A DNA stretch of 64,000 bases, taken from Gammaproteobacteria bacterium (GTDB lineage: Bacteria; Pseudomonadota; Gammaproteobacteria; Natronospirales; REEB76). Below, in pieces: positions 43,969-64,000 of the stretch (position 1 is its first letter; each line of letters starts with the position of its first letter). The notes under the pieces are model-generated. The model was given only the letters and a program-made list of their open reading frames with translations. It made no database searches and was not told where the DNA came from. The stretch covers positions 386,147 to 450,146 of the forward strand of contig DATEHU010000026.1 of NCBI GenBank assembly GCA_035279405.1, written 5' to 3'. A program made the position numbers and the translations under genes.

Positions 43969-44045
43969 TGGTAGCGGGGGCAGGATTTGAACCTGCGACC
44001 TTCGGGTTATGAGCCCGACGAGCTGCCAGACTGCTCCACCCCGCA
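43969..44045 (-). tRNA. metY: initiator tRNA-fMet (CAU)
   Basis: Manual cloverleaf: TGCGGGG-TG-GAGC-AGTCTGGCA-GCTC-G-TCGGG-CTCATAA-CCCGA-AGGTC-GCAGG-TTCAAAT-CCTGC-CCCCGCT-ACCA. Three G:C pairs close the anticodon stem, A11:U24 is present, and positions 1:72 are unpaired. It lies upstream of rimP-nusA-infB, as E. coli metY does. Confidence 0.9.
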
Positions 44046-58772: not shown

Positions 58773-58857
58773 TGGTGCCGACGGGGAGACTCGAACTCCC
58801 ACGGTTTTACCCACTACCACCTCAAAGTAGCGTGTCTACCAATTCCACCACGTCGGC
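58773..58857 (-). tRNA. leuU: tRNA-Leu (GAG)
   Basis: Minus strand: GCCGACGTGGTGGAATTGGTAGACACGCTACTTTGAGGTGGTAGTGGGTAAAACCGTGGGAGTTCGAGTCTCCCCGTCGGCACCA. Anticodon loop TTGAGGT, long variable arm. It lies downstream of secG, as E. coli secG-leuU does. Confidence 0.9.
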
Positions 58858-59378: not shown

Positions 59379-60134
59379 TCAAGTTGCCGCCCGGCAGATC
59401 GCCACAAACTCGGGTGCTTCCAGAGAGGCCCCACCGGCCAGGGCGCCGTCAATGTCAGGCATGTGGAACAGGTCGCCGGCGTTGGACGACTTGACGCTGC
59501 CGCCATAGATCACGCGTAAATCCGTGGCTATTTTAGCATCATCCCGCGCGATTCTTGCCCGGATCAGCGCGTGCACCTCCTGGGCTTCGGTCGGCGTTGC
59601 CATCTTGCCCGTGCCGATGGCCCACACCGGTTCGTAGGCCACCACCGCCTTGGCAAACGCGGCAATGCCGGAGGTGGCAAGCACCGCCTCGAGCTGGCGC
59701 AACACCACGACATGAGTCTCACCCCGCTCACGTTCCGCGAGCGTTTCGCCCACACACACGATAGGTATGAGCCCGGCCGTCAGCGCCGCCGCAAACTTGC
59801 GCGCCACCAGCTCGTCGCTCTCGTTATAAAAGGTACGCCGTTCGGAATGGCCGACAATCACGTATTGGCAACCGCAGTCGCGCAGCATCCCGGCCGAAAT
59901 CTCGCCGGTGTAGGCGCCGTCGGACGCAACGTCACAGACATCCTGCGCGCCGAGGCCCACCGCAGTTCCGTGCAGGACCACCGCAACCTCGGCCAAGTGT
60001 ACGTAGGGCGGACATAGCACCACGTTCGCTCGCACATCTTTTGCCACGCCCTGAACGACCGCCCCGGCCAGGCTGCGGGCGCCCTCGCGCGTGCCATGCA
60101 TCTTCCAGTTGCCGGCTATCAGTCGTTTGCGCAT
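59379..60134 (-). CDS. tpiA: triose-phosphate isomerase
   Basis: AGNWKMHG, VGHSERR and YEPVWAIGTG motifs. Confidence 0.95.
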   Translation of the reverse strand: MRKRLIAGNWKMHGTREGARSLAGAVVQGVAKDVRANVVLCPPYVHLAEVAVVLHGTAVGLGAQDVCDVASDGAYTGEISAGMLRDCGCQYVIVGHSERRTFYNESDELVARKFAAALTAGLIPIVCVGETLAERERGETHVVVLRQLEAVLATSGIAAFAKAVVAYEPVWAIGTGKMATPTEAQEVHALIRARIARDDAKIATDLRVIYGGSVKSSNAGDLFHMPDIDGALAGGASLEAPEFVAICRAAT

Positions 60135-60233: not shown

Positions 60234-60545
60234 CTAGGGTAAATTTACCGGGGAACCCCGCATGGCATTTGGTACTGATTGCAGGAAATAAGCCAGCAAC
60301 TCGCCGTTGGCGTTGTACGCATAGCTGTTACTGCCAAAGGTCAGCAGCCGATCCTGGTTGTCGTAGGTCGCAATCATCGCCGCGTTCACGCTCACACGGT
60401 TGTCATTCTGGTCAAAACTGCAACTCGCTATCGGATCGGGCTTCTTGGTCACGCGTCGAGGCGGCCATCCTGATCGTAGCCGTCGGTCACCAGACTTTAG
60501 CCGACCACCGTCATCTGCATCCTCCGCCCTACGACATCGTGACAG
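60234..60545 (-). pseudogene. decayed YD/RHS-repeat fragment with frameshifts and in-frame stops
   Basis: My translation finds YD repeats split over three frames: ..DADDGGRLKS / VTDGYDQDGRLDA(stop) / VTKKPDPIASCSFDQNDNRVSVNAAMIATYDNQDRLLTFGSNSYAYNANGELL. Similarity is then lost. Confidence 0.7.
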
Positions 60546-60571: not shown

Positions 60572-60895
60572 CTATTCTGTGTTTGGCGCTCCGCTGAAGC
60601 GATTACTAAGCGTTTCCAATAAACGTCGCCCATGAATCACGGCAAGGATATGCAGCCTGTCGCCTTGTATCTCGTAGATAAGACGGTAACTGTAAAGAAA
60701 TCGTTCGCGCACGTGCTCATCGTTCAGTTCTGGCACCACGCGTCCAAGCTTTGGTTGCTCGACAACCGCTTCGGCAATCGTGAAGAATTCTTGGGTTACC
60801 CGGCGGGCATGGTAGGAGGAATCGCGACTGATGTATTCGGCAATGGCAGAAACATCGTTAAGCGCTTCGTTCGACCAAATCAGTCTTGCAGCCAT
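60572..60895 (-). CDS. type II toxin, ParE/RelE family
   Basis: 107 aa with WSNEALNDVSAIAEYI.. and ..FLYSYRLIYEIQGDRLHILAVIHGRRLL, a typical ParE/RelE fold signature. 16-nt overlap with the upstream small ORF. Confidence 0.85.
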   Translation of the reverse strand: MAARLIWSNEALNDVSAIAEYISRDSSYHARRVTQEFFTIAEAVVEQPKLGRVVPELNDEHVRERFLYSYRLIYEIQGDRLHILAVIHGRRLLETLSNRFSGAPNTE

Positions 60896-61080
60896 TTTCG
60901 TAACCGCTCCTTGGCCTCTTCGTGGGTGTGGCTGTGCCCCGCCACAATGTCTGCCTGACCCCGCTTGATTTTCTCCAGCACGTACACATGATATTGAATA
61001 TCCTCCAACGTGCTGTTTTCCGGCAGATGGCCCAGGAGCTTTTCTACTTCCTGCTTGGGTGTAAGTACAGTCGCGCTCAT
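60880..61080 (-). CDS. putative cognate antitoxin
   Basis: 66 aa from MSATVLTPKQ (M17 of the listed ORF). LEDIQYHVYVLEKIKRGQADIVAGHSHTHEEAKERLRKWL resembles antitoxins found upstream of ParE-family toxins. The position and overlap also fit. Confidence 0.6.
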   Translation of the reverse strand: MSATVLTPKQEVEKLLGHLPENSTLEDIQYHVYVLEKIKRGQADIVAGHSHTHEEAKERLRKWLQD

Positions 61081-61396
61081 AACGGAATCCCTGGAAATAC
61101 TATGGTGTGATTGTAAGCCCTCCGCCATGATTTCTTCTATCGTGGCGGCGCCAGTTACTGGCAGTGATTAAGGCCAAATCGGCTAAGGCTGCGTGACTGG
61201 TAACCGCGAAGCCACCACGGTGTCCACGGCCGCGCATCACCCAACCGCCATACGTGACCCCCATGGTCGCCATAGCGTGGAGCGGCTTGCTGCATTGCGC
61301 GGGGATACGCGACCTACGGGCATTAACCAGGATTTCCATGGCGTACGGGTCCGATACAAAATAGATCTTTGGCGATTCATCTGGCAACATCCAAGT

Positions 61397-61714
61397 CTAT
61401 ATATGTGATGCAGAATCAACTCTCAGTGACCCGAACGGTTGAAACCCCGGATTGCTGTCCGAGGTGACATTGCCCCAAGCATCGTAGGTAATCTGCTCTG
61501 CGACGGCGCCGGTCGAAGCGTTCACGATCAACACCGGACTCCCGGCTTGATCGGCAACAACGCGATACTCCACTCCACCCTTCATGATGTAATCCGGCAC
61601 GTTCGGGCGGGTACCGTACACAAATTGCTCGACGACGTTGCCGGAGCCGTCAAATTCCGCCACTGGTTCCAATTGGCCATCGCATAGGAGCCACTTGGTA
61701 AACGTATCGATCAC
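61397..61714 (-). pseudogene. orphan YD/RHS core-tip fragment lacking a toxin domain
   Basis: [84 protein letters not shown] matches 76 of 84 residues of 62864-63115. It then diverges (SLRVDSASHI, stop). It begins 3 nt after the upstream immunity stop, with no SD. Confidence 0.75.
61430..61681 (-). repeat. copy B of the 252-nt RHS core-tip repeat
   Basis: Manual codon-by-codon alignment to 62864-63115 gives about 201 of 252 nt identical. Most differences are synonymous. Confidence 0.8.
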
Positions 61715-61717
61715 GTC

Positions 61718-62233
61718 TTACGCTTGCTTATTAAACTGCGGGCACTTTGACCGTAGCTCTGCTACCATTTGATCAAAGTCTTCAAATAATCCACTAATTA
61801 ACAGTCGTTTGTTACCACGTGTATGTATGATCAGTTGATTGTCTCGGTCCGAATGCCCTTTTGTCGTAATTGTGCTGATATCACGAAACTCAATCCGGTG
61901 CTCTCTGAGTCCAATATATGTTATGGATTCCTTATTTATTATTACGCGAGCTTTCCGTATGTAAATTGCCGCCACCATTGCCACCACGAAAGCGGGGCAC
62001 AAAGCAACCTCGACGGGCAGAAGGTTATCCCGCCTTGGCAGGAACAAAATCACGATAATAAGCACAGCGCAAATTAGAGAGAAAATATACAGAAACCAGT
62101 ACCACGGTGGCGGATATCTATAGGTGCTGAAACCATGCGCTTCCTTGTGATGAAACAAGCCCCCCAAAATCAATAACACAGTGATACCAACTGCAGCACC
62201 GATATATGCTATACCGACGTTCGCACCGGTCAT
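61718..62233 (-). CDS. putative immunity protein: 3-TM N-terminus plus PH-like C-terminal domain
   Basis: The ATG abuts the TAG of the upstream toxin ORF (TAGATG). Three hydrophobic helices (about aa 6-27, 44-66, 75-92), then a beta-rich tail KESITYIGLREHRIEFRDISTITTKG..LIIHTRGNKRLLISG reminiscent of bacterial PH (DUF304-like) domains. AT-rich. Confidence 0.6.
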   Translation of the reverse strand: MTGANVGIAYIGAAVGITVLLILGGLFHHKEAHGFSTYRYPPPWYWFLYIFSLICAVLIIVILFLPRRDNLLPVEVALCPAFVVAMVAAIYIRKARVIINKESITYIGLREHRIEFRDISTITTKGHSDRDNQLIIHTRGNKRLLISGLFEDFDQMVAELRSKCPQFNKQA

Positions 62234-63214
62234 CTATGGTCTCTGTGAGGAACTGTTTGCGGCTGCCGGGATCTTCCCTACCGCTGGCAAGCCTTGGCTT
62301 ACCCCAAAATTGATGTTTTCCGCTTCACGATAGAAAAATCCCGCCTGATCCTGCGCGGCTTGCTTTATTGATACCCCTGCGCCCAAGCCAGCAACTTCGC
62401 TGAATCCGCTCAGTAACCCCGCCGCCAGTACCTCTCTACCGTTCACACAGCCATAATTTGACTGCTCCCGGAGTGCTTCAATACCCGCAGTCGCAAGCCC
62501 ACGCCCAGCAATGCCAGCTCCCTCGACAAGCAGGGAACCACCGAATGTGAGGCCAGCGAGCGCACCCGTTGCCGCACCGGCGCCAAAGTCTCTGTCTAGA
62601 GCCCAACCACGATCACCGTTTAAATAGCCACTTGCGAGCTCCAACCCACCTCCTATAAGTCCGCCGACAACTGCCAATACGGGTCCACGACCATTAGCGT
62701 CGAAATCGTTGATTGGATCATCGAGCACGTATCCGTAGAGGTTACTGTCTCCACCCGCAAACAGAATCGGATCGCGGCTGATCCACCTCCCCGTCTGCGG
62801 GTCATAATCCCGCGTTCCAAAATGCACGAACCCGGTATCACGATCATACAACCCGCCCGCAAACCCAAATGGCTGAAATCCCGGATTTGAGTCGGACGTG
62901 ACATTGCCCCAAGCGTCGTAACTGATCTGCTCGGCGACGGCGCCGGTCGAGGCATTCACAATCAGCACCGGACTGCCGACCTGGTCGCTAATCACCCGAT
63001 ATTCCGCCCCGCCCTTCATGATGTAATCCGGCACGTTCGGGCGAGTGCCGTACACGAACTGCTCGACAATGTTGCCGGAGCCATCCAGCATCGCAACGGG
63101 CTCAAGCTGCCCGTCGTACAGGAAACCCTGGACCAACGTGCCGTTCACTTCCTTGCCCACCAAACGGTTCTGACCATTATAGTTGGCGTGAATGTTCTTA
63201 CTCTCCGCCGCCAC
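62234..63214 (-). CDS. orphan YD/RHS core tip fused to a glycine-zipper-rich C-terminal toxin domain
   Basis: Teneurin-like core end [77 protein letters not shown], then a 151-aa Gly/Ala-rich hydrophobic tail. No SD or ATG; the listed start is a GTG inside the core homology. Confidence 0.75.
62864..63115 (-). repeat. copy A of the 252-nt RHS core-tip repeat
   Basis: See copy B. Both copies are in direct orientation on the minus strand. Confidence 0.8.
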
Positions 63215-63258: not shown

Positions 63259-63783
63259 CTAACCATCGAAGGACTGAAGATAATACTTAGTATCCTGTAG
63301 TAATTCGCGCTGGTGGATGTCCAACGAGAGACGACGACGTGTTACGCGCACGTTGTTGAAATCAATTTTTACAATATACGCTTCCGCAGCATCGCCCACC
63401 CAGAAAATGAGTGCCAATTGCTGATTTCCATTGTCCGTAACAAGCATGCCGCGATCCAGGTCGGCAAGGTCGCAAAAGACTGATCGTGGGACAAATATGT
63501 TTTTCCCGTTAACCGATATGGTAACGTTATCCACCACGCTACAAGGCACCCTACTATTTGTGCAACTTGTAAATTTAGTCGCCGTGGTGTCTATGTGACT
63601 CGGGGTTCCATTCTGAATTTCATGTGTTTTAATTGTTACAACTACATTGACATTTTTAATAGTGGTACTAATGATTGTATTACCTTTAGGAAGTATTTTA
63701 ACTGCGTCTAGGAAATTCTGTGCTTGCGCTGTTAGCGCAACGAAAAGACAAGCACCCCCTAGCGAAACCAGAGTACGCCTCAT
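63259..63783 (-). CDS. putative periplasmic immunity protein (signal peptide)
   Basis: 174 aa with [23 protein letters not shown], a Sec signal with an AQA cleavage site. ATGA overlap with the upstream toxin stop. Very AT-rich: 18 G+C in the 60 nt at 63601-63660. Confidence 0.6.
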
Positions 63784-64000
63784 GGCACCACCTGCAATAT
63801 ATCATCGGGTGGACTGTTACGCATGCTTGCCACCAGCTTACGCAGCCGACGATCGGATACGATGCAGCCGTTAGATGAAGTTTTACCTGTATCGTTACGC
63901 TTGGGCCCATGCCAGAAGAAGCCGCTCCGCCCATGCATTTCATTCCCAGAAAACGGTGTGAGCGGCAAGGCATATTGCAATACATGACCTTCATTGGTCA
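63780..64000 (-). CDS. C-terminal end of a larger toxin ORF (open at the window edge) with a Tlde1/DUF2778-like L,D-transpeptidase-fold motif
   Basis: The frame is open to base 64000: ..TNEGHVLQYALPLTPFSGNEMHGRSGFFWHGPKRNDTGKTSSNGCIVSDRRLRKLVASM... The GRSGF-x-HG...S-x-GCI spacing matches the His/Cys catalytic pattern of the YkuD-like Tlde1 effector family as I recall it. Confidence 0.5.
   Translation of the reverse strand, partial: TNEGHVLQYALPLTPFSGNEMHGRSGFFWHGPKRNDTGKTSSNGCIVSDRRLRKLVASMRNSPPDDILQVVP

Follow-up and report, generated by a model that had tools for sequence, protein, structure and literature searches.

The end of the window, the whole 64,000-nucleotide stretch analysed (contig DATEHU010000026.1 of a gammaproteobacterial metagenome-assembled genome, MAG), carries on its minus strand a gene pair that is probably a polymorphic-toxin cassette, now orphan and silent. 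The pair consists of a Tlde1 (DUF2778) toxin domain, placed behind an RHS core, and of a Sec-exported immunity protein, encoded by the next gene.

Structure of the locus and recovery of the complete toxin gene

On the minus strand, positions 63780..64000 hold the last 73 codons, stop included, of the toxin open reading frame (ORF), which is still open at the window edge. Translation of 63780..63998 (-) gives 72 residues followed by a stop, matching the sequence quoted in a first-pass annotation made from the window alone. The immunity gene (63259..63783, minus strand; 174 aa, HKV96972.1, annotated as hypothetical) begins within the end of the toxin gene: the letters tcat at 63780..63783 give ATGA on the minus strand, in which the start ATG of the immunity gene overlaps the TGA stop of the toxin. 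Its Sec signal peptide is encoded at 63721..63783 (minus strand), with cleavage predicted after AQA, before QNF. The edge-cut ORF of 73 codons, the ATGA overlap and the signal peptide of the following ORF, all described by the first-pass annotation, were confirmed.

The missing part of the toxin gene was obtained by exact-sequence look-up. The immunity protein retrieved a Logan contig of 1,472 bp (L001), 100% identical to the window over 851 bp; the neighbouring 326-aa protein retrieved L015, taken from a 204,668-bp ENA contig, which matches the window with 100% identity for 11,767 bp and adds 9,214 bp past position 64000. Position x of L015 corresponds to window coordinate 73215 - x, and coordinates obtained in this way are referred to as "extended". 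The complete toxin ORF (P0060) spans extended positions 63780..65276 on the minus strand (L015 7939..9435) and encodes 498 aa, a length on which NCBI and ENA gene calls agree; the NCBI name is "RHS repeat-associated core domain-containing protein".

The toxin domain belongs to the Tlde1 family

A Tlde1-like domain had been proposed from the 73 codons within the window, together with a PF10908 profile search and a comparison with the YkuD fold as ways of checking it. The 498-aa ORF matches Tlde1_dom (PF10908) with 46.1 bits (E 7.8e-12) and the 234-aa product of L001 with 47.2 bits (E 3.5e-12), both above the gathering cut-off of 30.1, and the best family is Tlde1_dom, not YkuD. The 72 residues encoded in the window score 20.8 bits, short of the cut-off since they cover no more than profile positions 69-100 of 120; the E-value of this match (5.4e-4) nonetheless indicates that the His...Cys motif is more than a chance occurrence.

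According to the domain search, the Tlde1 domain starts at HWEYSQSTG (extended coordinate 64190, minus strand). The predicted catalytic residues are a His (FFWHG; codon at 63909..63911, minus strand), at position 94 in the domain and 456 in the ORF, and a Cys (SSNGC; codon at 63864..63866, minus strand), at position 109 in the domain and 471 in the ORF; the pair on which the earlier call was based is retained. Across 20 aligned homologs, His94-Gly95 does not vary, S-x-G-C (Ser106, Gly108, Cys109) is retained in 19, and Arg88 is nearly invariant. Two His are found in the stretch quoted by the first-pass annotation: the one in FFWHG is the conserved residue, while that in EMHGR is variable.

At the fold level, a search of the family profile against PDB aligned HG...SxGC to the ErfK/YbiS (YkuD-type) protein 4LPQ with a marginal E of 0.026, and phmmer with the toxin domain returned nothing significant from PDB. 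An AlphaFold2 model of P0001, a homolog 49% identical to the toxin domain and sharing its insertion pattern (predicted local distance difference test, pLDDT, 82.5), had 32 PDB matches at E<=1e-3 by Foldseek. The top-ranked ones are L,D-transpeptidases such as LdtMt1 (4JMN, 6e-5), LdtMt2 and YkuD (1Y7M); the expected likeness to the YkuD fold is therefore supported, through the model of a homolog. On plasmids, tblastn identified "tlde1 domain-containing protein" genes, 33-45% identical, in Burkholderia and Pantoea, adjoining tssD in the latter. Membership of the Tlde1 (DUF2778) family is established at the sequence level and supported at the fold level via the homolog model.

The toxicity of the Salmonella Tlde1 is seen in the periplasm, not in the cytoplasm; the protein requires H121 and C131, and cleaves the bond between meso-diaminopimelate and D-Ala (mDAP-D-Ala) in tetrapeptide stems (bioRxiv 10.1101/2020.02.18.954545). 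By analogy with it, an enzymatic activity may be expected for the domain described here.

The toxin is fused to a truncated RHS carrier

The RHS core profile TIGR03696 (NCBIfam) matches the sequence directly before the toxin domain with E 2e-21 and 76.3 bits, against a cut-off of 32.5. The junction reads ...DPVDLDDQMGL, then HWEYSQSTG; the DPxGL motif, canonical in the relatives, is degenerate here (DQMGL). In the alignment, stand-alone homologs begin exactly at this junction, with M-x-W-x-Y-SQSTG.

Pfam searches assign to the 498-aa ORF RHS repeats and a TEN_YD-shell match restricted to profile positions 597-871 of 909: the shell portion kept corresponds to the last ~360 residues, about one third of the whole. 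The ORF has neither a complete shell nor an N-terminal delivery region, and no secretion signal, PAAR or adaptor domain was found in it. Translation starts at a TTG, 9 nt downstream of a possible Shine-Dalgarno sequence (AAAGG); the frame opens 30 nt before this start (L015 7909), after a stop codon and an 83-nt gap. A promoter and terminator scan around the cassette gave nothing above shuffled expectation. When a longer relative, the L003 protein, was compared with L015 by tblastn, its residues 1708-2203 matched the toxin ORF (64% identity), nothing earlier matched there, and its Ig domains matched a separate upstream gene of L015.

The upstream ORFs of L015 encode a secreted protein of 831 aa with Ig domains, two lipoproteins (245 and 248 aa) that are paralogs of each other, and a secreted protein of 827 aa with a truncated paralog, each carrying its own signal peptide or lipobox. 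The hypothesis that these five ORFs are frameshifted pieces of one giant RHS gene was rejected because of these individual signals, of the presence of two paralogous pairs and of the lack of similarity to the middle part of the L003 protein. Neither the ORFs scanned in the 64-kb window nor the genes called in the next 9.2 kb include any for PAAR, VgrG, Hcp or Tss proteins.

The first-pass annotation had suggested that the toxin is delivered on an RHS-type scaffold, rather than as a stand-alone effector. The fusion behind an RHS core is real; the ORF is probably not a complete delivery vehicle, because it is limited to 498 aa, keeps only the last ~360 shell residues, starts with TTG and follows unrelated genes. 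Nor is the RHS attachment a novelty, since Rhs-DUF2778 fusions had been published earlier.

A putative secreted immunity protein from an unnamed family

The claim of secretion held for the putative immunity protein of 174 aa, with its Sec-type signal, and for its relatives. A Sec-type N-terminus was recognized, by a simple hydropathy and charge check, in 31 of 33 diverse members of the family, the two exceptions being truncated gene calls; in some members, a lipobox replaces the plain signal peptide. The family alignment shows Cys74 and Cys81 as invariant, and Cys104 as mostly conserved, in the mature domain. An AlphaFold2 model of the immunity protein is all-beta (pLDDT 84) and found no fold match in PDB (best E 0.18).

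No Pfam or NCBIfam match was obtained for the 174-aa protein, even at E<=10, nor for the 33 relatives, and none of these sequences matched the models of Tldi1a (DUF2195), Imm16/DUF2750 or Imm57. The immunity protein was unmatched in the plasmid collection, and a scan of the genome contig collection with it found no relatives. Among proteins, 1,087 cluster representatives (50% identity) match the family at E<=1e-3, and 133 of them reach E<=1e-30.

An immunity homolog lies directly 3' of a Tlde1 gene in 8 of the 9 distinct loci examined (adjacency in window/L015, L003, L004, L005, L006, L019-L024 and L023; exception, L002). It follows a protein of at least 2,203 aa in L003, a 120-aa stand-alone Tlde1 in L004, an RHS-Tlde1 protein of at least 581 aa in L005, and a 2,770-aa protein in L019-L024. 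Between L006 and the locus described here (window 63780..64000 vs L006 1195..1605), the toxin domains are 79% and the immunity proteins 63% identical, values which, as far as the sequences tell, fit a faster divergence of immunity proteins. More distant Tlde1 genes (L009, L016) are paired with unrelated partners. The gene is adjacent to the toxin (ATGA), its product is exported, and it co-occurs with the Tlde1 family, as in effector-immunity pairs in general; the protein would accordingly be the one that neutralises the toxin.

Two loci deserve separate mention. The homolog in L002 (10001..10594, 44% identity) is an orphan immunity gene: its neighbours on the 1.87-Mb contig are metabolic genes, and none near it encodes Tlde1. 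In L004 (1382..3278), the Tlde1 and immunity genes directly follow an IS200-type Y1 transposase gene and precede an RHS fragment, an arrangement that suggests transposon-associated movement of the cassette.

That an immunity family is unannotated is unsurprising in itself, since the immunity proteins Tai6 and Tai7 have no annotated domain (bioRxiv 10.1101/2020.02.18.954545). The new elements are the size of the present family and its tight link to teneurin-like carriers.

Full-length relatives and short RHS-CT genes

The full-length carriers of this toxin-immunity pair are teneurin-like proteins, of 2,203 aa or more in L003 and of 2,770 aa in L024. The former (L003 3..6614) contains Big_13, Glucodextran_B, Big_6, TTR_TEN1-4, FN-plug, NHL, YD-shell and Tlde1 domains; the latter (L024 1692..10004) contains five He_PIG, Big_9, cadherin-like, TTR_TEN1-4, YD-shell and Tlde1 domains. 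No type VI secretion system (T6SS) genes were found within 10 kb of the L024 carrier gene, the only full-length relative with 10-kb flanks. The called N-terminus of the L024 protein shows no obvious signal peptide.

Short genes, made of an RHS part and a C-terminal toxin domain (CT), are also found in other lineages. P0061 (L025 107, 496 aa) shares 85% identity over the RHS part, carries another CT and lies within an array whose fragments are 496 and 585 aa long. P0139 (L016 10001, 484 aa) is 58% identical, has a Tlde1 CT and an ATG start, and is present in at least 11 contigs; no full-length RHS was found within 10 kb of it. P0060 (L015 7939), P0061 and P0139, from three lineages, begin at the same position of the shell (...YDxDGLLTxAG...), and L015 and L025 are partially similar about 100 nt upstream of the ORF. 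For the RHS part, the best 120 homologs range without exception from 340 to 625 aa. In a wider alignment, N-termini are spread over about 150 residues. The idea that short RHS proteins of ~500 aa are a functional class of fixed size is unsupported overall, because N-termini scatter and array fragments range from 72 to 585 aa; three lineages do have one start boundary in common.

The downstream array and its genomic setting

RHS fragments of 498, 326, 105 and 72 aa follow one another in the locus, the first two each having a downstream gene. After the immunity gene, the order is: 326-aa fragment, 171-aa gene, 105-aa fragment, ParE pair, 72-aa remnant and tpiA, with secG, tRNA-Leu and the nuo operon beyond. 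GC content is 0.46-0.50 in the cassettes, as opposed to 0.60-0.65 in core genes. A related strain (L011) carries five further fragment/immunity pairs, with fragments of 292, 277, 363, 427 and 126 aa. The fragments are 5'-truncated, keep RHS sequence and are arranged in tandem, the first two with their own CT and putative immunity gene; in terms of sequence organization, the locus is an orphan rhs-CT/immunity array, as described in PMC3150448 and PMC3967940.

The second cassette (62234..63214, minus strand; HKV96971.1, 326 aa) consists of an RHS core part of some 175 aa (TIGR03696, E 5.9e-20) and, after it, a Gly/Ala-rich C-terminal domain of ~150 aa for which no family match was found. Its putative immunity gene (61718..62233, minus strand, 171 aa) encodes three hydrophobic helices, as judged by eye, and weakly matches a bacterial PH domain; the pair suggests a membrane-targeting toxin with a membrane immunity protein. 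No NCBI source for the 171-aa gene is given in the protein collection, and the gene may be unannotated in the MAG record. The third RHS core fragment (61397..61714, minus strand, 105 aa) ends inside the core (…FQPFG, then SLRVDSASHI*).

Inside this decayed array sit a ParE-type toxin gene (60572..60895, minus strand; PF05016, E 5e-17) and, upstream of it and overlapping it, a putative antitoxin gene (60880..61128, minus strand, 82 aa) whose product has no family match. A 96-aa ORF just upstream of the ParE pair (61100..61390) is also without a match. The distal RHS-repeat remnant (60234..60483, minus strand, 72 aa), 80% identical at the DNA level to the interior of the toxin ORF (extended 64782..64972), marks the end of the island, bordered by tpiA (59379..60134).

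On the other side, just beyond the window, the upstream secreted-protein and lipoprotein genes lie in a low-GC island (0.43-0.53; L015 906..7856, extended ~65359..72309), which may be a second effector/immunity system. The gene for the Ig-domain protein is followed there by two repeats of a lipoprotein gene plus a secreted-protein gene, one with the truncated and one with the 827-aa copy. The 827-aa protein (start ...AYEPGTHQRLS) contains an H..D..H stretch that by eye looks like a zinc phospholipase C (HLLEDMAQPQHVRND); this resemblance was unsupported by Pfam, NCBIfam and PDB, and no claim is made on it. The remaining window is core chromosome, with gyrA, smc, ligA, pnp, infB, nusA and the nuo operon; tRNA-Leu(GAG) (58773..58857, minus strand) lies between secG and nuoA, and tRNA-Met(CAT) (43969..44045, minus strand) upstream of nusA.

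Comparison with known systems

Among the closest known systems is Tlde1a/Tae5-STM of Salmonella Typhimurium (STM14_0336; PDB 7UMA). It belongs to the same PF10908 family and shares with the toxin described here the catalytic His and the S-x-G-C Cys, an Arg six residues before the His (R115/H121 there, R88/H94 here) and an adjacent immunity protein with a Sec signal (Tldi1a, DUF2195, there). By analogy, a periplasmic L,D-carboxypeptidase activity and a D-amino-acid exchange on peptidoglycan stems would be expected here as well. Tlde1a differs in being a stand-alone 173-aa Hcp cargo in a T6SS cluster, whereas the present toxin is the C-terminal domain of an RHS fragment; the spacing from His to Cys is 10 residues there and 15 here; and the immunity protein here is not DUF2195 and is encoded downstream, not upstream.

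Both the toxin type and its fusion to RHS were already documented in 2020: the first study of Tlde1 reported Rhs-DUF2778 fusions in 387 of 3,510 (11%) genomes with the Tae7 family, as in Shigella sonnei WP_052983304.1 (bioRxiv 10.1101/2020.02.18.954545). L,D-peptidase polymorphic toxins on Rhs had been predicted by Zhang et al. 2012. In these Rhs-DUF2778 proteins (Tae7/Tlde1c family), as here, Tlde1 is at the RHS C-terminus, right after the core, and an immunity gene follows. The proteins are full-length and near PAAR genes, whereas about one third of the shell is present here; the full-length relatives of the window ORF are instead teneurin-like (Ig/He_PIG/TTR/NHL/YD-shell); and the reported immunity types (transmembrane-containing Tai7, Imm16, Imm57) are unmatched here.

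The orphan rhs-CT/immunity cassettes of Salmonella and E. coli (PMC3150448, PMC3967940) are likewise tandem, 5'-truncated, core-bearing fragments with their own immunity gene. At the locus described here, in contrast, there is no full-length rhs immediately upstream, the core repeats are only 78-82% identical at the DNA level, and the first fragment is unusually long (498 aa). Finally, the YkuD-type L,D-transpeptidases (LdtMt1 4JMN, LdtMt2, B. subtilis YkuD 1Y7M, 4LPQ) share the HG...S-x-G-C motif and the predicted fold with the toxin domain, but are only about 12-17% identical to it; the canonical enzymes have a signal peptide and peptidoglycan-binding domains, and make 3-3 cross-links for their own cell.

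Proposed function and alternative explanations

In the proposed mechanism, a toxin domain with a predicted YkuD-like fold would be translationally coupled, through ATGA, to an exported immunity protein. Judging from its homologs, the toxin would have its site of action in the target cell's periplasm, where the His/Cys pair may remove the terminal D-Ala from tetrapeptide stems of peptidoglycan, or exchange it; cross-linking would be blocked, leading to division failure and lysis. In the same compartment, the toxin would be bound by the immunity protein. In the full-length relatives, the toxin domain lies within the YD shell and is presumably freed by autoproteolysis of the core at ...GL, before HW. 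Here, the cassette heads a series of progressively more truncated RHS fragments ending at tpiA. Given the one-third shell, the TTG start, the unrelated upstream genes and the decaying array, an orphan silent cassette is the most likely state. The immunity gene would be its working part, protecting against Tlde1-armed neighbours, and the toxin module could serve as a recombination reserve.

Several observations weigh against this explanation. The 498-codon ORF is fully intact and keeps every conserved toxin residue, which is unexpected for a long-dead relic, and P0061 and P0139 hint that short RHS-CT units may be maintained. Core repeats with 78-82% DNA identity are a poor substrate for recombination. 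As to the toxin itself, the fold model is that of P0001, not of the window protein, and Salmonella Tlde1a (7UMA) was not reached by pairwise or profile sequence searches of PDB. The search for a full-length RHS or a T6SS covered no more than the window and the 9.2 kb beyond it.

Part of this evidence points to an autonomous, expressed 498-aa effector, exported via a partner encoded elsewhere, for example a separate shell or adaptor for the N-terminal side, in the way that TcB complements TcC, or a spike protein of the T6SS. The intact ORF with its possible Shine-Dalgarno sequence, the shell start common to P0061 and P0139, the ATG start and repeated occurrence of the latter, the partial similarity upstream of the L015 and L025 ORFs and the size range of the best 120 homologs would all be in keeping with such an effector. 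The scattered N-termini of the wider alignment and the variable lengths of array fragments are, instead, what random truncation predicts; the ORF has no export feature of its own among those searched for, no promoter-like site exceeds chance, and neither the 9 kb upstream nor the 60 kb downstream shows a partner gene. Autonomous short effectors are therefore considered unlikely, and orphan cassettes are favoured as the probable explanation because N-termini scatter and fragment sizes vary within arrays. Equally tentative is the wider proposal of an unnamed immunity family for RHS- and teneurin-borne Tlde1, joined to intact RHS-CT genes of ~500 aa that would be maintained as exchangeable units complementing a separate, non-T6SS carrier.

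The other alternatives are much less probable. A complete T6SS-type RHS effector with Tlde1, merely cut by the window edge, as implied by the first-pass annotation, would agree with the RHS core directly upstream of the toxin and with the Rhs-DUF2778 genes known near PAAR genes in enterobacteria. It is very improbable, since the frame in L015 opens only 1.5 kb upstream and is preceded by the stop codon, the gap and the unrelated 827-aa gene; both gene calls give the short product, and no T6SS genes were seen in the sequence scanned. The recovered sequence contradicts this explanation, unless an assembly error at extended ~65300 is common to L015 and the MAG.

Just as improbable is an intracellular toxin-antitoxin or stress module, as proposed for the orphan Rhs of Salmonella. 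An orphan rhs without the delivery part has been reported to behave in the manner of a type II toxin-antitoxin module (PMC7043789), and a ParE toxin-antitoxin pair lies in the same island. The toxin, however, has no signal peptide, its homolog does no harm in the cytoplasm, being toxic in the periplasm alone, and the immunity protein is exported; this module is disfavoured because toxin and antidote would occupy different compartments of the producer.

A fragment of a housekeeping L,D-transpeptidase or carboxypeptidase, suggested by the fold and catalytic motif of YkuD enzymes, is the least probable of all: the domain has Tlde1_dom as its best family, follows an RHS core in the same protein, lacks both a signal peptide and a peptidoglycan-binding domain, and is encoded in a low-GC array of orphan cassettes, where its gene is coupled to that of a secreted partner of polymorphic type.

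Implications

A reading of the sequence alone was able to recognise a Tlde1 domain from 73 codons. The intact short RHS-CT genes, with a common shell start in three lineages, are of use to the field. There is evidence that, in soil bacteria, this peptidoglycan toxin is carried on giant teneurin-like YD proteins with Ig-like domains, and not on the PAAR-Rhs proteins of T6SS, which raises the question of the route by which a shell-encapsulated toxin enters the periplasm of a neighbour. The periplasmic immunity family, widespread, unannotated and tightly linked to Tlde1, is a candidate for a new Pfam entry, as well as for structural work on how toxins with an L,D-transpeptidase fold are blocked.

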